A stretch of DNA of 64,000 nt from Ionaspis alba (GCA_964255285.1 CAXUUL010000010.1:1-64000), one strand, 5' to 3'; shown: positions 896 through 35,009, counted from the first letter of the stretch. Program-made: numbers and translations. Notes: generated from the sequence alone by a model not told the origin.

Positions 896-2271
896 ATGGA
901 CTCCCCACCAGAGGCCAATAGCATGGAAGTGACTCCTCTCCTACCGCCCCCTCCTGGAACTGCTCCAAATTTTGTCAATCCCGAGAATTCGGCATACGAA
1001 ACCTACGTAGCCGCCGGAATATGTCTGTCGCTGATGCTCTTGTTCACTTCCGCACGCGTCTATGCTAAACTGAAGCTGATACGAGGAAGGACCTTGGATG
1101 ATTGTATCGCCCCTGCCTTTACTTATATTGACACGGTGCTGACGCGGAGTCTAGATATACATGTGTTGAGTTTTGTATATCCCCTGTGCTGATCGACTGG
1201 AAAGATCTAACATGACAGAAAAGTCATCAGCATGCATATACATTGTCCTGACAGTAGTCGGTAGATAAAGATTAATACCTCTTTAAAGTTAATGTGCATA
1301 AGCTGACAAGCAAGTAGTTGTTCATGAGGGTTTATATGGCCGTCATGGATGGGATGTCACCCTCGGGATGTTCCTTCCCAAGCACTTGGAAGTACATCGA
1401 CCTTTATCTTTGTCATTCTATCTACGATTGGCTGATATCTCTCCACCAGTTGTCACTAATACTCAGAGTCATCTATGGACCGTTCATCTGGATTATCAAA
1501 TTGTCCTTGTTCCTGTTATACCTAGAAACATTCGGTCGCCTCAAATGGCTAAGACGTCTCGTCTATGTGGGCGCTATTCTTACGGGATTGATCTATTTCT
1601 CTTCAATGATTGCTCTCATCATCCTATGCGCTCCTAGAGACGGGCAGACAGAACAATCATACCTGATAGCTCTATCCTCACCACGTTGCGCTCTCAGCAA
1701 ACCGTTGAGCATCGCACTCGGCAGTGTCAATATTGTTAGCGACTTTTATATCCTAATCATTCCTTTACCAGCGGTTTGGTCGCTTCAACTCCCAATACGA
1801 AGTAAGATTGGCGTTTCAGCAATCATATTGACAGGTCTCATGTAAGATATGTTTCTTTGGTGGGTCGCCCATGCTGAGAATATGTAATTTAGGGCCTGTG
1901 TTAGTAGCATCGCTGGTCTATACTATCGATTTGTCGCCCTCAGGAGCGACGATGATACTTGGACCGTCATATCGCTTTGGATCGTGACGTAAGTAACACT
2001 AAGGCTGTTTCTTACAGTCGCTGACGAGCAAGCAAGTTTCCTTGAGATGACAGCCGGTGTCATCATACCATGTATGCCTAGTCTTGCCGCGGTCCACCGC
2101 CACCACAAGGCCTCTGTGTTGTTGTACTTGAGTAGTCCAAGGAGAATGCTTTACAGTCGCTCCACGATCTTTAGATCCTCACAGAAGCTGCGAGACATTG
2201 ACGATAGTGTCGAATTGCGACCGATTGAGAGATATACCATGATCGACAAGCCACAGGTAAGGGAGGTGTAA
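896..2271 (+). CDS. PTH11-like integral membrane protein (fungal rhodopsin domain), about 7 exons
   Basis: N-term PPPPGTAPNFVNP; spliced segments YGRHGWDV, IIKLSLFLLYLETF, NIVSDFYILIIPLPAVWSLQLP..KIGV, EMTAGVIIPCMPSL. GT..AG introns near 1104-1154, 1175-1223, 1261-1317, 1393-1450, 1843-1891, 1989-2036. Start may be 896 or 923. Confidence 0.8.
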
Positions 2272-2900
2272 AGAAGGTCGGCGAGTCGGGAAGGGCACAA
2301 TGGGAGGAGTAGGAGCGTAACTGTTACTGGAACAACGCGGATTACCTACAGCAAAGAGCAGGAATCAAACTTTAAATTGGATTTCCAGGACGTCGTAATC
2401 AATTTCCATAGCTGCTCCGCTTCTATTGAGATCAGGGTTGTACCAATTTATTAGTAGAGGCTGTGAGAAGGCTTGGTAAACTTCACAAGGCGGAATTTCA
2501 CGAATCCCAGAACCACGAACTCCATCATCACCCATGGATGAGTATCATGCTCTGATACCTTCGCCAGAAACCATTGTCCACCATGTTATTGCTACGCAAG
2601 GCCATAAACACGCATCAGGTGCCTGCTTCGGCCCTCCCAAATCCGCAATGCAGTGCCTTCAAGCGTCACCACCCTAGCCACCTGCTAACGACGCCCCTCA
2701 ATAAATTGAGCTGAACGCTGCTTTCATCTCGTTATATCAGGCAGTCTACCTGCCTCTTGATTCTTTAAAGAGCCATTCTCTGGCTATCGGAGCCGCAGCA
2801 NNNNNNNNNNNNNNNNNNNNNNNNNNNNNNNNNNNNNNNNNNNNNNNNNNNNNNNNNNNNNNNNNNNNNNNNNNNNNNNNNNNNNNNNNNNNNNNNNNNN

Positions 2901-7420: not shown

Positions 7421-8280
7421 CGGTTCGTTTCTGAATGTCTCCTATCATGCCTTTTTGGGCAGATCGTCGTGCCTGGCTAGACTTGAAAGGGAAAACGGCG
7501 AGTACGCTTCCGAATAGCCATTGCCACCTCTAGTCCCATATCATCTCTTTATGGGAGACTACTACTCCACGACGTTTGAGCGCTTACAGAAGTGTTCTCT
7601 TCCGACTGCAAACTCGATATTTNNNNNNNNNNNNNNNNNNNNNNNNNNNNNNNNNNNNNNNNNNNNNNNNNNNNNNNNNNNNNNNNNNNNNNNNNNNNNN
7701 NNNNNNNNNNNNNNNNNNNNNNCACGACGTTTGAGCGCTTACAGAAGTGTTCTCTTCCGACTGCAAACTCGATATTTACCTACTTATCTTTTGGCTGAGG
7801 AGACATGTTGTTTACCACCTTCCAAATGAGAATGACATGAAGCCGTACTGCCCTTTCTTCCTTTATATTCGAACAGATGTTATGTATAATACTTATTCCA
7901 CAGGCGCCATTTCTTTCGCTGTACCACATATTAATGGACCAACGCAGACCTTTTCGATGCTCGAAATGATGGGACAGAGAAGCAGATGCGAGCACCAGTT
8001 CATCCCAACGGTGATGAAGAAAGCCCAGTCAAAATATCTACAAGTTTTCTCGTAGGGCCCTAGAACACTGGTTATCATCATATAGTGAGCCAATGCATTA
8101 TTCCTACATCGTACCACATGAAAATTGGAGATACGAAACTGTGCTGTTTTACACATTCCCTAAGTATGTACAGTAGACTTCGAACCCCTTGCACATCCCC
8201 ATTGACAGCGCTCTTTGTGCCATTGCTCAATTGATTCAGATGGTCACCTCTATTAACCTTCTCGAACGATGACCACGAGT

Positions 8281-9033: not shown

Positions 9034-10161
9034 TTCGTGGGCGTCAATGGATCTGGAGAGAATAAATCCATGCTGCAGGGAAGGTCCGTTTGATAACTTG
9101 GCACGGAACACGTGATCCAATCTCTGGCACGAAGATCGCTGTTACGAATATCTCTATCACATTTACTTCTACGATTACAATCGACATAGCAGATCTTCAA
9201 TATAAACAACAAACATCTTCTTTGTTTGAGTTCAAAAAAGCCTGTCTTTGATTTTCATGAACTGACAGTCTTTACTCGTCTTTTGGCTGCAATCATCTCT
9301 TCCACGCACTCGGGTCGAGCCTCGCATTTGCAGGAGCATGGAGCCAATATATGCTCACGTGCGATCCTGTTGTTGGTGATTCTGCAGGTCAATGCGACTG
9401 TACATATCGAATCCAGTACCTTGATCACATTGAACATATCGCATGGCACGAGGATCTTGAGGTCTGACAAAGGATTTTCTGCCCCTCTTTCGCTGAATCT
9501 CCTCGTACTCAACTAAGTGACCGAACAAATTCGNNNNNNNNNNNNNNNNNNNNNNNNNNNNNNNNNNNNNNNNNNNNNNNNNNNNNNNNNNNNNNNNNNN
9601 NNNNNNNNNNNNNNNNNNNNNNNNNNNNNNNNNCTGCCCCTCTTTCGCTGAATCTCCTCGTACTCAACTAAGTGACCGAACAAATTCGAGAGCAGCAAAT
9701 TCATCCTCTAAGTTCATAAGTGTATTTCTTTCCGTCGGGGCAGTCTACATTTGTCCTCAATTCGGAGAAGGGCCGCATCGTGCCCCACCACCAGATCTGT
9801 CCGGACCCCGCCTCTAGGCATTGGTTCCTTCGTCTTCTCAACCCTGGCGCTCCTCGAAACCCACACTCCCCCGCCTTTCGAGCACTCAGCTCCTACTTCT
9901 GTATCTTTACCATATGTCAACTGTCAGTTGTCGAAATATACTGGCAGGTTGTGGGTGACTTACACCCGGATTGTTTCGTTGATCGTTCTACTGGTTGTCC
10001 TTCTTGTCCAATTCCTTCGCCCACGGACAATAGTGTATACCTCGAAGCCGACGACCAGCATCAATCCACACACCTCCCATCTTGACCTCAGTCTTGCTAC
10101 AGTGGTCATCTGTCCCACTGTAGTATCGTTCCCAACAAGCCTACCAACATCAGCAGCCAAC

Positions 10162-11898: not shown

Positions 11899-12004
11899 TA
11901 TAGTNNNNNNNNNNNNNNNNNNNNNNNNNNNNNNNNNNNNNNNNNNNNNNNNNNNNNNNNNNNNNNNNNNNNNNNNNNNNNNNNNNNNNNNNNNNNNNNN
12001 NNNN

Positions 12005-18570: not shown

Positions 18571-20466
18571 TCATTCGGTTCTTTGACGTTTACCTAGTGG
18601 CTCACCATTGACTTCATCGAAGGTGCGTCGAGAAGGACTGGATTCGCTAGACGAGCCAGAACGACCTGTAGAGTCAATATCCCCTAGCTTGTCTTTCGAA
18701 GCACGCAACAATTCATCCGCCAGGCTTGGTAGTTGTTTGACCCTTTCTGCCAGCCCTTCGACGGAAGGCTTGGAAGTGCTGTTCTTGGGTAGGCTGATGG
18801 AAAACATGACGAGTCGTTGTTCATCTTTGGCCGTTGCCTTTGCTTTCTCTCCAGCCTTGTCACTCTTCAGTTCCAATTCACAATTCTTTGTCATTTTGCC
18901 CCTATCCACATGACTAGTCTCCAAGTCACTTCCATTTTCATCTTTCTTTGAAATCTCAGGAGGATTCATATCTTTCGGTGTCTCTTTCTCCTCTTCAGCC
19001 TCCGTATACTCCCACATAGTCTTGATATCTCCCTTTACGAATGCAGTGCCCCACAAAGAAAACAGGACTCCAGGAACAAGATAAAGAAGTGCGGGTTGAC
19101 CATGCTTGAACACATGCATGACTCCAAGCGTGCATAGCATACCAATAATATAGCCAGAGATACTCGCATAGAAGTAGGTTTTTGGAAACACACTGCCCTC
19201 AAGATGATTGCGATTCTTAGAGTCGAGCCAGAATCGCTCACCCCAGCCAGCAGTCGCAGGATGATATTCAGCCTTGATAGCTTCAGTACCAGCAAACTTG
19301 ACGTCTAGTGCGAGAAATTTGTCACTCGTAGTCTTTACGAGACCCTCTGAAGCAGCCTGCTGTCGTTTTTGCTTTCGCAAGTAAAACAGGTAGAGGTCGA
19401 ACCGTAATGCTAGTCCAATCATAATGCCTGGTAGGACGACGTCTCCTAAACCAAGCATGGAGAGCGCTTTTTTAGTTGGATCATCGTCCACTCCAGACGG
19501 TCTAGGAAACAGAAGTTTGACTGGTATATCCAACTTCGTAGCGACTGTAATCATGAGTGGAGTAAAGAAGACAAAGTAGATGTCGTAGAAGAACAGAGAT
19601 GTCAGAACCAAAGTCCCAGTCCAGAAAGTAGTGGGTGACATGAGCTGAAGTGCGGAGTAGCTAAATGCAAAGCCGAGGAGATTCGTCAACCACCAGGGCT
19701 TGTCGACAAGGTTGAAATAAAGTACTGCAGCCAGTGCGGACGCAGTGCTTGTAATCCCAAGTAAGCTCACCGGAGAATCCGCTTCCACAACCCCACGTAT
19801 GTATGTATTCACAACGCATATCGGTTGGATTGGTATATCTCTGATTGTCCACAACAGGTTTACTAGTTTCGGTGAAAGCGGAAGCCGTGAAAGCGATCCT
19901 GGTAATGGTGAGCTCCTCCTCTCCTGAGTTTTCCGTCCCTGTAGTTCCTCGGTCCGTGGTATTGCTACCCTCTGCTTGCGTTTGACCTCCCAAGTCATAT
20001 CACCGTCGCTATATCTGGCAGGAAAGATAAAAGACATGATCGTGCTCGTCGAATCTATAAGAAGCCTGGCGATAGATAGTATACCGAAGACAGACAGATA
20101 CCAGTTCAGTATCTTGTTCAATATGTCCGGATCTTTCAACCATTTGATCAGGAAATAGAGGCCGGCCAACATGCATCCCGTCAGGACAGGGTAGAGAATC
20201 GCGTCTGATGGCGATAATCCTTCCATTCGCTGAGAGTTTTCTACCGCCACATAGTCCTCCTCTTCAGAGTTATCTGTAGACCGTTTCTTCGACTTCGAGG
20301 GCTTTGCGGCAGATGATGGTCGTGAGAGCGAGGCATGTGCACCCGTGAAGATAGGAAAAAGAGCTGATATCAGCAGATGAAGGTAAGTTGGGACAAATGG
20401 CTGGATGAGAGTAAGTTCATAGGCAATGCGGCCCACGATCTCTGAGATAATGCCTGGCGAAGACAT
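18571..20466 (-). CDS. sppA: Signal peptide peptidase (GxGD intramembrane aspartyl protease, A22B)
   Basis: LFFYDIYFVF, LGLGDVVLPG, GQPALLYLVP motifs; intronless 631-aa ORF. Confidence 0.92.
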   Translation of the reverse strand: MSSPGIISEIVGRIAYELTLIQPFVPTYLHLLISALFPIFTGAHASLSRPSSAAKPSKSKKRSTDNSEEEDYVAVENSQRMEGLSPSDAILYPVLTGCMLAGLYFLIKWLKDPDILNKILNWYLSVFGILSIARLLIDSTSTIMSFIFPARYSDGDMTWEVKRKQRVAIPRTEELQGRKTQERRSSPLPGSLSRLPLSPKLVNLLWTIRDIPIQPICVVNTYIRGVVEADSPVSLLGITSTASALAAVLYFNLVDKPWWLTNLLGFAFSYSALQLMSPTTFWTGTLVLTSLFFYDIYFVFFTPLMITVATKLDIPVKLLFPRPSGVDDDPTKKALSMLGLGDVVLPGIMIGLALRFDLYLFYLRKQKRQQAASEGLVKTTSDKFLALDVKFAGTEAIKAEYHPATAGWGERFWLDSKNRNHLEGSVFPKTYFYASISGYIIGMLCTLGVMHVFKHGQPALLYLVPGVLFSLWGTAFVKGDIKTMWEYTEAEEEKETPKDMNPPEISKKDENGSDLETSHVDRGKMTKNCELELKSDKAGEKAKATAKDEQRLVMFSISLPKNSTSKPSVEGLAERVKQLPSLADELLRASKDKLGDIDSTGRSGSSSESSPSRRTFDEVNGEPLGKRQRTE

Positions 20467-21201
20467 GGGGGTGAGAAGTCGCTGATACGGTACGACTTTG
20501 GGGTCCAGGGCAGCGAAAGTTATGTGATCTAGCTCAAGGTAAGCAGGTGACTTGTAGAGTTACTATAGGGGATGGGAGAATACCTGCAAAGCTCGATGTT
20601 TGCTACATCACCAAAGACTCCTGGTTCGACTTGGTTTGCTCTCTTCATATCAAGAAGACGCTTCCAGCAGCAGGGCAGTCAACAGAGGTGGTTAAGGGCA
20701 ACAACGAGGGCTCGCCCTACGGCTTTAGCTGGCAAAGTCCCTTACACTATCCCTGTGCTTGGCTGAGAACCACCGTTTCTGGCCCCGGAACTACGAGGCA
20801 ATCTACGCATGAATGATAACCATTAGAACTTTACATGTACACAGTGACTATATTAGATCAATCTAGAATTGTTATGGACGAGAGGCATGGGATGGAAATG
20901 ATGATTGTATCGTCACAAACGAACCGCATCTTTCAGGTTGATATCCAGAGCAGTAGATACAGGACGCTTTTCTAGAAATCCTTCTTCGCATTTCTGGCTT
21001 GGAGATCAATGAAGACCCAAGAGCTTGCAACCACACAGTGATTATGTGATTGTTTGCAAATGCGTATAAAGAAACAATTCGAATTCCCAGAATATTTGAC
21101 ACCAAGCGCGTTCTTCTGCTTAGTCATTCGGATTTCTAGGAGTTCGAGAAGACGGCTGAGAACCACCACATGAACGATGTGATCACAAGCATGAGTGTGT
21201 G

Positions 21202-23272
21202 ATGGAAGCACTCGGCGACACCGCATGGGATGTCGTGATTTCTGGGACTGGCTTACCTCAGTCCCTGTTAGCACTGTAAGTTGCTCCATCCACCACACAA
21301 AAGTTGACATCTCTGACTGACGCAGTTCATGAGGAAGAGCTTTGTCACGCTCCAATAAAAAAGTACTACATATCGACCGCAACGACTACTATGGCGGGAG
21401 GGATGCGGCCCTCAGCCTGCAAGATGCTGAAAGCTGGGTGAACAAAATCAACGATGGTATGTCTGTTTTCCCTCAACTCCATTACTTCCAAATTGCGCTC
21501 AACGCATGCCTAGGTTCTGGACCGCGATCATTCTTAGACGCTCAAATCATCTACCCTAGTGATGGAGCAGATAGTTCGAATATTGGGCCGAGGTCTGCGA
21601 AGCTAGGATTCTCTCGAGCATACAGCCTAGCTCTATCACCCCAAATCATCTATACGCGCTCTGCATTACTGCCCACTCTTGTCTCCTCGAAAGTCTACCG
21701 GCAATTAGAATTCCATGCAGTTGGCAGCTGGTGGATCTACAACCAAGAAAGCGCTGGAAATCAGGAGGATGATACGCCAAATGATCAACGAGTCGGCGGG
21801 AGGTTGAAGAAGATACCGGGTGGCCGGGAAGATGTGTTTGCGGATGAAACGATTGATCGGCAATCCAAGCGAAATTTGATGAAGTTTTTGCGGCTCGCTT
21901 CAGATGTCGAAGCTCAAGGACCTATTCTACAAGACTGGGGCACTCGAACCTTTGAAGACTTCCTCAGCCATCAGTATGGTCTCTCACCGAAACTGCAAGC
22001 GGCACTTCATGCTCTTACACTTTCGTTGAAACCGCTCGACCAGACCATGACTTCGTTTGCCTTGCCTCGGATAACACGACATCTCACCTCAATCGGTGTA
22101 TTTGGACCTGGCTTCGGCTCCGTCGTCNNNNNNNNNNNNNNNNNNNNNNNNNNNNNNNNNNNNNNNNNNNNNNNNNNNNNNNNNNNNNNNNNNNNNNNNN
22201 NNNNNNNNNNNNNNNNNNNNNNNNNNNAACACGACATCTCACCTCAATCGGTGTATTTGGACCTGGCTTCGGCTCCGTCGTCCCTAAGTGGGGGGGTCTA
22301 GCCGAGATAGCACAAGTCGGCTGTCGTGCTAGTGCTGTCGGAGGTGGTGTATATGTTCTGAACAAGGGAATTGAAGGCTCAACGAGCAGCAACGGGGCAG
22401 GTGCGAATCTGAGCATAGATCTACAAGGTGGAGAGACGATATCGGCTCTATGGGTCGCTGGCTGCCGTGACGATTTTCCTCTGTTGAACCAGGCACCTAA
22501 GCCAGCTTCTACATGGACGGTTACCCGTTCGATTTCCGTGTTGTCGTCTCCTCTACCAGACTTGTTCCTAAATCAAGTGGAAGGAGCACCTCCACCCGCC
22601 GTCGCCGTTGTGGTATTCCCTACCTCGTCTCTAGATCAGGACGGTTCTTCATCAGGACTAAAGTCTCCTCCTGTATACTTTATGATACATTCCAGTGACA
22701 CTGGAGAGTGTCCTATAGGCCAATGTAGGTCAACAAGTCTTTGAACCCTTCCTTGAGCGATCTGATGAACCAAACCAAACGAATACTTATCTACATTGTC
22801 TGATGTTCCATTGAAGATAACATACCTCTGACAGTCTGATATTGTGCTCTTGTTTTCAGTCGTGCTTTCAGCTTCCTCATCTCGCACAACGGGCTGATAC
22901 GAAACGAACACAGGTGTCGTTTATTCTACGACTGGTCTTGAAGGCGCTCCTGGTCACGAGCTGCTCACTCTTGCAATGCAACAATTACTCGAAACTATTC
23001 ACGACGAGACACGACCTGATGTCTTATGGACGCTTCGATACTCGCAGTGTTTCACCCAAGGGCCAATCCAAGCTAGCCCCCCAGAAAATGGGCAGGGAGT
23101 TGAAAGACAAGGTGGCACTGTCTTATTTCCTGAGCCTGTTGTTGATTTGGCGTTTGATGATGGTGTATTAAGGGACGTGATGACTGCATGGCAGGAAATT
23201 AGCGGTCAGGCAGAAGGCTTCATGCAATTTGAGGATAGGGAAGTTGGAGCCTATGAAGATGAGGATCTGTAA
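21202..23272 (+). CDS. MRS6: Rab escort protein / Rab geranylgeranyltransferase component A (GDI/REP family), multi-exon; gap 22128-22227 is artefactual
   Basis: WDVVISGTGLPQSLLAL/ALSRSNKKVLHIDRNDYYGG, LVSSKVYRQLEF, KIPGGREDVF, PKWGGLAEIAQVGCRASAVGGGVYVL, HSSDTGECP. Introns start at 21276, ~21457 and 22725. Confidence 0.88.
22757..22845 (+). ncRNA. snR62: Intronic box C/D snoRNA, snR62/SNORD34-like, double guide
   Basis: Box C TGATGA 22763-22768; guide CTTATCTACATTGT 22786-22799; D' CTGA 22800-22803; C' TGAAGA 22812-22817; guide ACCTCTGACAGT 22824-22835; D CTGA 22836-22839; terminal stem GCGAT/ATTGT. Lies inside a 189-nt intron (22725-22913). Confidence 0.85.
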
Positions 23273-27041: not shown

Positions 27042-28057
27042 ATGGCCATGCAAATCAGTCCCAGTGGCAAAATTGACCGCCAAAGTATCGTNNNNNNNNN
27101 NNNNNNNNNNNNNNNNNNNNNNNNNNNNNNNNNNNNNNNNNNNNNNNNNNNNNNNNNNNNNNNNNNNNNNNNNNNNNNNNNNNNNNNNNNNTTACAATGG
27201 CCATGCAAATCAGTCCCAGTGGCAAAATTGACCGCCAAAGTATCGTTCCCTTCCATCTCAAACTTTTTTACCGCACCGGCGCGTTCCATAGGTAAGTTCG
27301 GCAGCTCTCACCTTCCCCCACAAACGAAGCTGAGCGCTTGCAGCATGATCTCTGTCTAACCCCTCATAGACTTGAAGAATTCCCTACCTCGAACTCCGCC
27401 GCTCTTCCTCCCCACCTCCAAATTTACACTTGGCCGTCCTGCACCTTGCGTGAACTCTCACACCTCCTCACCTCCGCCCTTCCCAATCTTCTACCAGATC
27501 CTGTAATCGGCACACGCCTCTCTTATCGCCTCATATTTCCCGACACACGCGACATAAGCCGCTCTGGCCCCGGTCGGTACTTGAGCAAAGAGCTTGGCAG
27601 TGTTGTCGTGGGAGGCGAGGGTCCTGGTATCTTACCGTCCGAGGAGGAAGCGAATGTTGTCAGGGGAGGACCGATGTCCGGAAAATTGGATGGTGAGCCT
27701 GATAAAACGTTACAGGACGCCCGGTTTGTTATTGGGGATTACATCTCTTGCGCGATCTTTGCGCCGCTCACCAATGGTGCTGTAGCACCAGCGCCTGGAC
27801 CGGGCACTGGAGGGAGATTCGGAGGACGAGCTACGGGTGACTTCGGTAGTGGGAGAGGTGGGGCTGGGCCAAGGGAGAATGGCTTTGGCGGTGGTTACAG
27901 ATCTAGAGGCGGGCCGCCGAGGGGTGGGGATAGCTTTGGAGCTGGGAGGCTGGGAGATGGGGGAGTTCCGACTGGTGAGTGGAGGAGGGGAGAAAGGGTG
28001 CCTGAGGGACCAGGTGGTAGAGGGTATGGAAGAGGAAGGGGCAGGGGAGGTTATTGA
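27042..28057 (+). CDS. SAP18: Sin3-associated polypeptide SAP18 with RGG-rich tail, 2 exons (start duplicated across artefactual gap)
   Basis: KIDRQSIVPFHLKLFYRTGAFH/RLEEF, LQIYTWPSCTLREL, KTLQDARFVIGDYISCAI. Confidence 0.9.
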
Positions 28058-33817: not shown

Positions 33818-35009
33818 ATGCCCGCACCTTACGCGACTTACCCGATTCCCAAAGCTGCGAAGGCAAAGATGCCCGAATACCTTGAGCTCAAGGAGAGGGA
33901 TTGGAACAACGTGGTGGACAATTCTTCCCAATGTCAAACACTTACTACAGAAGAAGAGATCAAATTCCTGGACAAGAAGAACAAAAAATCGCCAGTAGTT
34001 TCCTGTTTGAATATGTGACGAACATGTTAACCAATGATCCACAGTGGGAGAATACCTGAAGCTCCACCCGGATATGGCCCACGAGCTGATGGTGCCTTCA
34101 GGATTCAAGGAGCGTATTTTCAGGCGTTACGAACGCCTGCTCGCTAATGAATCGCCTTTGTCCATACAGACAGGTCTCGTGGAAGATGCCAAGNNNNNNN
34201 NNNNNNNNNNNNNNNNNNNNNNNNNNNNNNNNNNNNNNNNNNNNNNNNNNNNNNNNNNNNNNNNNNNNNNNNNNNNNNNNNNNNNNNNNNNNNGTGCCTT
34301 CACCAAAATTCCCTTCTGGTCTGCTGTCTCGCTCGAATGCTCTGCTCTCCGTATTGCACGGAATGAGCTCCTCGCAATTCCCGGCCAGTGGTCAGACTGG
34401 CGCTTCCCCATTGGTCAGCGCATTCTCATCTGTCTGAAGCAACTTGAAGTCCGCTTGCAAGCTTTACATGTGCGAAACCCAGGTTGCGACTGTAAGCAAC
34501 GATCCCTCGCTCGATTGTCCAAATTCCCGTCAATCATGCTAGCTAATTATCTCACAGGCTGCTGTTTTAACGTCCCCAAAGCGGTTCCAAAAACCATGTT
34601 CGCCAAAGAATTTCTCACCAAGCGCGAAGCGGCCGCTGTGGTCGTTGAGTTCCGCAAACTCGCCGGGGAGACTCTCAAAGCCTGCAGCTACGACCCTGTC
34701 ATGTGGGAGCTTCTTGGGCTGAAAGAGGGTCCAGCACCGGATCATGGATGGATGAAGGACGAGAATGCTGTTCCGAGGAGTAAAGAGATCGCCAAAGGCG
34801 TCTTGGTTGCTCCGTTCTTCCCTGTCGCGAAAGCAACGAAGACTTCGAAAAAGAACACCATCACTAAATCGGAACTCGTGGTCAGGGTACAAGCGGCAAA
34901 TCTGATCAATGAGTCTATCGACTCAGCCGTAACAGGCAAGGACAACGAGGTGGACAAGAACGAAATCGAGGAGACGAGACTGAACGACGGAAATGGAGCC
35001 GAGAAATAG
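33818..35009 (+). CDS. Hypothetical protein, interrupted by gap 34194-34293
   Basis: ATG in good context (ACCATG) after a pyrimidine-rich leader, intron ~33995-34044, long open frames on both sides of the gap; no recognisable motif. Confidence 0.6.

Follow-up and report, generated by a model that had tools for sequence, protein, structure and literature searches.

In Ionaspis alba, a Rab escort protein (REP) gene carries in its last intron an element (22755–22849, + strand) that is, with high probability, an intron-borne box C/D snoRNA, orthologous to Nc CD22 of Neurospora and belonging to the snR62/U34 (SNORD34) functional family. The element has the ordered boxes and two guides of this class, its guides are identical to those of a cloned snoRNA over the 14 nt and the 11 nt compared, and both its sequence and its host intron are conserved. 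It lies in a window of 64,000 nt (GCA_964255285.1 CAXUUL010000010.1:1-64000), the whole stretch of DNA analyzed here, and all coordinates are counted from the first letter of this window. We regard it as a real but ordinary snoRNA; the family and the double-guide reading are already published, and the constancy of the REP host intron is a minor, mildly new point. Because neither the box layout nor Rfam gave a significant result, the case for the snoRNA rests on the guides and on conservation. What the initial annotation had observed at this locus is confirmed, and its interpretation of the locus as a functional intronic snoRNA is supported; its description of the snoRNA as hidden applies to the present sequence, where it is unannotated, but not to the family.

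Boxes, guides and predicted rRNA targets

The boxes are found in the canonical order C–D′–C′–D and are enclosed by a terminal stem; the limits of the element were set from the sequence, the Rfam alignment, an alignment and a sequence model of orthologues, and the predicted fold. The mature RNA probably extends from about 22758 to 22844, with a predicted length of some 85–90 nt. The terminal stem is formed by GAGC (22755–22758) on the 5′ side and GCUC (22846–22849) on the 3′ side, with a duplex energy of −6.7 kcal/mol, and is present in the MFE fold; inner G·U, A-U, and U-A pairs are possible between 22759–61 and 22841–43. The ordered boxes and terminal stem that had been proposed for the last REP intron were thus borne out by both sequence and fold. 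The single-sequence fold contains this stem and little else (−11.2 kcal/mol), and is less structured than shuffled sequences (z = +1.1); little internal structure is expected for a C/D snoRNA, and a low-structure fold is not evidence either way.

The C box, UGAUGA (TGATGA in the DNA; 22763–22768), lies outside the pattern later used to search for orthologues and is invariant in 38 of 38 sequences; the base preceding it, C22762, is not the usual purine (in the 37 orthologues, this base is A in 36 and G in one). Downstream, an AAUA stretch (22782–22785; alignment columns A38–A41) sits 5′ of the 14-nt duplex with rRNA and outside the search pattern, yet is invariant and also present in Nc CD22. 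It is followed by the D′ guide, CUUAUCUACAUUGU (22786–22799; the DNA 14-mer CTTATCTACATTGT), which is identical to the D′ guide of Nc CD22 and directly precedes the D′ box CUGA (22800–22803); orthologues carry CUGA or CUGC here, with CUG invariant. The C′ box is UGAAGA (22812–22817), with UGACGA in some orthologues and with the columns UUGA.G..A invariant and outside the search pattern. The D guide, UACCUCUGACAGU (22823–22835), shares its first 11 nt with the D guide of Nc CD22 and is followed by the D box CUGA (22836–22839), with the stem coming directly after it. A second CTGA at 22828–22831, inside the D guide, is used as the D box in the Rfam alignment; this alternative was rejected in favor of 22836–39 because of the similarity in other organisms (contig similarity in other sequencing runs stops at 22839/22840), the terminal stem, and the published drawing of Nc CD22.

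The 14 nt before the D′ box are complementary to the LSU rRNA stretch 5′-ACAAUGUAGAUAAG-3′ (written here as the N. crassa rRNA strand), as had been claimed initially from the complementarity to a conserved LSU sequence; the same guide, in Nc CD22, has been drawn against N. crassa 26S rRNA. The fifth base of this guide, counted back from D′, is A22795; it lies opposite the first U of 5′-ACAAU... in the target, the position to which the initial annotation had pointed by the same rule. The initial annotation recognized this LSU guide correctly and overlooked a second one upstream of the D box: the first 11 nt of the D guide pair with 18S rRNA 5′-UGUCAGAGGUG-3′ (N. crassa strand), and A22831 is the fifth base from D, so that the element would be a double guide. 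The fifth-base counts place A22795 and A22831 opposite the same two uridines as in Neurospora. On the published Neurospora rRNA, both guides have at least 10 complementary nt ending at D or D′ and follow the fifth-base rule.

Nc CD22 (GenBank EU780946), a 79-nt intronic RNA of Neurospora, was identified in a cDNA library (Liu et al. 2009, PMC2780460). Its D′ guide was assigned to 26S-Um1866 with a 14/0 match, and Table 1 of that paper lists as homologues snR62 of S. pombe and S. cerevisiae and U34 of Arabidopsis and human; its D guide was assigned to a second target, 18S-Um893, with an 11/0 match, for which the table gives no homologue (PMC2780460). The two duplexes are drawn in Additional file 4 as 5′-CUUAUCUACAUUGU-CCAA against 26S 3′-GAAUAGAUGUAACA-5′ and as 5′-UACCUCUGACAUU-CUGA against 18S 3′-GUGGAGACUGU-5′, and the start of the Nc CD22 sequence is given in Additional file 1 (PMC2780460). 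Both RNAs are intron-encoded double-guide box C/D snoRNAs, and they share the 14-nt D′ guide for 26S Um1866, the 11-nt D guide core (UACCUCUGACA) for 18S Um893, and GAAUA 5′ of the D′ guide. They differ in the D′ box (CCAA in Neurospora, CUGA in the window), in one base between the D guide core and the D box, two positions before the D box, and in length (79 nt as compared to the ~85–90 nt predicted for the window snoRNA).

The yeast site 25S Um1888, methylated to ~99%, has snR62 as its assigned guide (PMC5344495). Yeast snR62, listed as a homologue of Nc CD22, guides the homologous LSU site, but differs from the window element in that the LSU target alone is listed for it in PMC5344495. The published homology table of Nc CD22 and the assignment of Um1888 to snR62 agree with the initial assignment to the snR62 (25S Um1888)/SNORD34 site (PMC2780460, PMC5344495). 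"SNORD34" and "U2824" occur together in published papers. The reading of the LSU target as the U equivalent to Neurospora 26S U1866 and yeast 25S U1888 is therefore supported, as judged from sequence comparison, and by this target site and the published homology table the element can be assigned to the snR62/U34 (SNORD34) functional family. The 18S Um893 site is a prediction only, even in Neurospora.

The expected Rfam match to snR62 or SNORD34 did not materialize at the gathering score. In the whole 64-kb window, no Rfam family reached its gathering threshold, and at these thresholds no rRNA was found within the window. A search restricted to 401 nt returned SNORD34 (RF00147) as the best of four weak matches (17.7 bits, E 1.1, threshold 38). 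This sub-threshold alignment runs through the guide core, CUACAUUGU, and then D′; scoring below the gathering threshold, the element falls outside RF00147 (human/plant U34) by the Rfam criterion, and the consensus of the Rfam model, unlike the window element, has no second guide. A minus-strand match to sR43 (E 7.4) was treated as noise. The box layout alone was not significantly above chance: the C...D′...D pattern had one match in the window, with 0.47 expected, and at least one match in 36 of 100 shuffles. When 37 orthologues were made into a sequence model, with the window left out, the model matched the 64 kb only once, at 22761–22846 (77.6 bits, E 2.7e-23), a result that is partly circular because the 37 sequences had been retrieved with 23 nt of the window.

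The REP host gene and its last intron

The host gene (21202–23272, + strand) was delineated by Pfam, comparison with relatives, PDB searches, and a tblastn exon map with orthologous proteins. It starts with an ATG at 21202 and contains an inferred intron 1 of 62 nt (21276–21337); exon 2 extends to 22724 and is interrupted by a 100-N scaffold gap (22128–22227), and the stop codon is at 23270–23272. The product matches the Pfam GDI family (PF00996, E 1.9e-13), and the closest named proteins, from Xylographa, Trapelia, and Lambiella, are called "Rab proteins geranylgeranyltransferase component A" (58–61% identity over 256 residues), a name that reflects the depositors' annotations and not assays. 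These three genera are lichen-forming. A PDB search placed the host protein nearer to REP-1 (4.3e-11) than to Rab GDI (1.7e-5); a PDB search with the exon-2 residues of the gene gave no match. The gene is thus predicted to encode REP (Rab geranylgeranyltransferase component A), with a GDI/REP fold closer to REP than to Rab GDI.

Intron 2 (22725–22913, + strand; 189 nt, GTAGGT...AG) is in phase 1, as T22724 and GT at 22914–15 together form a Cys codon (T|GT). Two annotated orthologous proteins continue straight through this junction (..GECPxGQC|V(I/V)Y..; ..GECPxGQC|VIYAS..), which fixes the intron and shows it to be the last of the gene. An alternative 3′ splice site at 22859 was ruled out because it runs into a stop codon, and a minus-strand ORF (22636–22920) was treated as noise. 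The probable branch site is CUGAU (22894–22898, with A22897), which precedes the 3′ splice site by 16 nt and follows the D box by 58 nt; CTAAC- or CTGAC-like motifs are present at comparable distances in the orthologous introns. Intron 2 is about three times longer than the only other intron inferred in the gene (189 as compared to 62 nt), so that the initial statement that it exceeds most introns by about this factor holds for the REP gene; the snoRNA within it explains this length.

In yeast, snR62 is transcribed from a gene of its own, whereas SNORD34 has a ribosomal protein gene as its host; to our knowledge, yeast MRS6 has no such intron. For Nc CD22, no host gene is named in PMC2780460 or its readable supplements. 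The initial annotation had described the host, a prenylation/trafficking gene, as atypical, a view weakened by two published findings: yeast MRS6 (REP) is a target of Sfp1 and controls its localization (PMC6411004, citing Singh and Tyers 2009, Lempiainen et al. 2009), which ties Mrs6 to the control of ribosome biogenesis, and an intronic location is usual for the C/D snoRNAs of Neurospora, applying to 45 of 55 (Liu et al. 2009, PMC2780460). Outside the supplements of "The fungal snoRNAome", which may hold one, our literature search found no report placing this snoRNA in the REP gene. Neither snR62 nor CD22 is mentioned in the portion of the text of "The fungal snoRNAome" available to us, and neither "escort" nor "snR62" is present in the PomBase "ncRNA in intron" table (PMC8476143).

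Conservation across fungal loci

Metagenome contigs were scanned with a 23-nt double-guide pattern in which 10 nt from the D′ guide are separated by a gap from 13 nt covering part of the D guide and the D box. The pattern had 60 matches in 59 fungal metagenome loci, and [AG]TGATGA was found ~20 nt upstream in 59 of the 60 matches, the remaining match being cut by a contig end. Since both guide cores were fixed in the scan, invariance of these 23 nt is uninformative; however, among the 38 unique sequences (including the window), 25 of the 48 invariant columns lie outside the pattern. These comprise the CUG of D′, UUGA.G..A at C′, the C box, and two stretches lying 5′ of the fixed guide cores, AAUACUUA for the D′ guide and CC for the D guide. 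Within the guides themselves, CUUA of the D′ guide and the two C at 22825–22826 of the D guide are outside the pattern and invariant in 38 of 38 sequences, and A22824 is nearly so.

The terminal stems differ in sequence yet pair, as in GCAUUA/UGAUGC, GCAUCA/UGAUGC, GAGUG/CACUC, GCACAA/UUGUGC, and, in the window, GAGC/GCUC. RNAalifold on the 37 orthologues gave pairs only between invariant guide columns and no covariation; as MAFFT misaligns terminal stems of variable register, duplex energies calculated per sequence were used in its place. The median duplex energy of the flanks was −6.1 kcal/mol for a sequence's own pairs, as compared to −3.2 kcal/mol for cross-pairs (n = 1250) and −1.6 kcal/mol for shuffles; one-sided rank tests gave 7e-5 (vs. 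cross-pairs) and 2e-8 (vs. shuffles), values whose significance is overstated because the sequences are related. A stem of −5 kcal/mol or lower is present in 24 of the 38 sequences, about two thirds, while 11 have essentially no flanking stem within 13 nt.

Conservation was also seen in Logan contigs that were found by similarity, independently of the 23-nt pattern. The four contigs obtained from two further runs, both belonging to one study, all resemble the window at 22776/81–22839/40 and nowhere else; they diverge on either side of this stretch, and ATGATGA or GTGATGA is present in their unaligned upstream ends. For the parts of the window that they leave uncovered, these runs give no evidence of absence. 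In the best-matching run, the only contig spanning the snoRNA (22573–23059) shows 0 differences from the window.

The residence of the snoRNA in the REP gene is conserved as well. A tblastn search with the REP exons of the window found REP coding sequence flanking the snoRNA, in the correct order and on the correct strand, in 59 of 59 metagenome loci, so that boxes and guides proved to be conserved in orthologous REP introns, a test that had been set beforehand. In 57 loci, the end of the upstream exon falls at one and the same residue, two further loci being cut by contig ends, and the exon is followed by one phase base and GT in all 36 distinct loci that have it. An AG precedes the downstream exon in 19 of 19 distinct loci in which that end could be placed (i.e., with the exon aligned from its first residue), and the introns of these loci are 179–216 nt long (189 in the window). 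Across loci, the C box lies 37–57 nt past the 5′ splice site (38 in the window) and the D box 65–95 nt ahead of the 3′ splice site (74 in the window); outside the snoRNA, the intron sequence is not conserved. For the metagenome loci, the nearest named REPs are from Lecanoromycetes and Leotiomycetes (40–93% identity; one locus had no match), although the reference set used for this naming is biased toward relatives of the window. The window REP itself has only 40–61% identity to the REPs of the loci and of named relatives; together with the conserved residence, this low identity indicates that the snoRNA-in-REP arrangement is old.

Alternative readings and biological role

In the preferred reading, the snoRNA would be transcribed within the REP pre-mRNA, and its C/D and C′/D′ motifs would be the binding sites of the core proteins of the snoRNP, among them the methyltransferase fibrillarin/Nop1. 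Once the intron has been spliced out and debranched, it would be trimmed by exonucleases to the protected RNA of ~85–90 nt. The 14-nt D′ guide would then pair with LSU rRNA, leading to 2′-O-methylation of the U (Neurospora U1866/yeast U1888) opposite its fifth base, and the D guide may pair with 18S rRNA, specifying the U equivalent to Neurospora 18S U893, where methylation is probable. Expression, processing, and both methylations in I. alba are what we infer from the boxes, guides, and host intron described above.

A less likely reading, which nevertheless deserves some weight, is that the snoRNA is real but effectively a single guide, in which only the D′ guide acts, on the LSU U, and the 18S complementarity is idle or otherwise conserved. 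It would fit with the 18S duplex being just 11 bp, G·U pairs included, and with the published record on 18S-Um893, for which Liu et al. give no yeast, plant, or human homologue and for which we found no experimental mapping in the portions of that paper available (PMC2780460). The scan pattern fixed most of the D guide, making its invariance partly a product of construction; however, all 38 sequences have the CC that immediately precedes the fixed part, nearly all have the adjacent A, and in the similarity-found contigs of other runs the resemblance extends as far as the D box. An acting D guide is also favored by Nc CD22, which was not found by the pattern but has these 11 nt unchanged, its one difference lying outside the duplex. 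It is very unlikely that the copy in the window is a decaying or weakly functional relic, with the guide possibly supplied by another locus: our view of the genome is confined to 64 kb and C22762 departs from the purine of the orthologues, but the box cores, both guides, and the terminal stem (−6.7 kcal/mol) are all intact, the copy scores 77.6 bits against the orthologue model, and the spanning contig of the best-matching run is without differences. Least probable of all is a conserved cis-acting intronic element that controls REP splicing or expression and resembles a snoRNA without giving rise to a stable RNA. In favor of such an element, all 59 loci strictly keep to a single intron of a single gene, but what is conserved consists of snoRNP-binding boxes and two rRNA-complementary stretches that obey the fifth-base rule, the remainder of the intron is not conserved, and in Neurospora a 79-nt RNA has been cloned for the orthologue (PMC2780460).

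A separate and improbable reading is that the residence of the snoRNA in the last REP intron, with codon and phase unchanged across the 59 loci, reflects a maintained coupling and not a frozen accident. The idea has its background in yeast, where REP/Mrs6 binds and controls Sfp1, a TORC1-responsive activator of ribosome-biogenesis and snoRNA genes. If it were true, production of the guide for two rRNA methylations would be tied stoichiometrically to that of a protein regulating ribosome synthesis; another possibility is that REP splicing is adjusted by the snoRNP as it assembles on the intron.

Read as an orthologue of Nc CD22, the element fills a gap in the sparse annotation of a lichen-type fungal genome, which had lacked this snoRNA gene. 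It also shows that the double guide of Nc CD22, which combines an LSU site common to yeast and human with an 18S site specific to fungi, has been conserved in fungi well outside Neurospora, and this conservation strengthens the case for the predicted 18S methylation. The REP intron may serve as a useful synteny anchor for locating this snoRNA in other fungi, and it illustrates, on a small scale, that a snoRNA can stay with one host gene over long times even when that host does not encode a ribosomal protein.

Gene structure and neighbourhood of REP

The Rab escort protein (REP) gene, whose last intron (22725-22913) contains the box C/D snoRNA, is interrupted by a scaffold gap. Seven N runs, each of exactly 100 N and each representing a scaffold gap, occur in the 64-kb window (2801-2900, 7623-7722, 9534-9633, 11905-12004, 22128-22227, 27092-27191, and 34194-34293); the fifth falls within REP exon 2. 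An identical coding stretch (..TRHLTSIGVFGPGFGSVV..) is found on either side of this gap, as if two overlapping contigs had been left unmerged; the interruption of the REP reading frame would then be an artefact. Comparison with an orthologue also bears on the first REP intron (21276-21337), for which the acceptor appears to be the AG at 21336-37, the only acceptor that both preserves the frame and agrees with the orthologue (..SLLALALS..); the nearer AGs at 21324-25 and 21332-33 are apparently passed over.

A long ORF (18571-20559) is located upstream of REP on the opposite strand. In a protein sequence deposited for a different lichen fungus (P0047), a signal peptide peptidase domain (PF04258) is fused to a GDI/REP domain, which hints that the gene containing this ORF and REP are also adjacent in that fungus and were merged there by gene prediction.

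Sequence variants and inverted copies

In the sequencing run whose contigs best match the window, a second contig variant with about half of the summed depth covers 22502-22572 (8 mismatches) and 23060-23120 (5-7 mismatches). Since this variant differs in the exons on both sides of the last REP intron, it suggests that two haplotypes or strains are present in the sample; 22573-23059, including this entire intron, is represented in the run by one contig without differences. One metagenome contig (L031) carries two near-identical, inverted snoRNA copies at 1471-1518 (-) and 2472-2520 (+), adjoined by REP exon fragments on opposite strands; either the locus has undergone an inverted duplication or the assembly has produced an artefactual palindrome.

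Variable and invariant parts of the snoRNA

In a single orthologue (L029, 3001-3056), D' is separated from C' by a palindromic G+C-rich insertion (GCCCCATGGGGC), which may represent a lineage-specific internal hairpin. In the sequence given by Liu et al. 2009 (PMC2780460), the cloned Neurospora crassa snoRNA Nc CD22 similarly runs into a G+C-rich stretch after D', and likewise carries AAUA 5′ of its guide. This AAUA (22782-22785 in the window, noted together with G22781) immediately precedes the 14-nt LSU guide. It shows no variation among the aligned sequences (38/38), and lies outside both the published Nc CD22 duplex and the metagenome search pattern; additional pairing and protein contact are possible roles.
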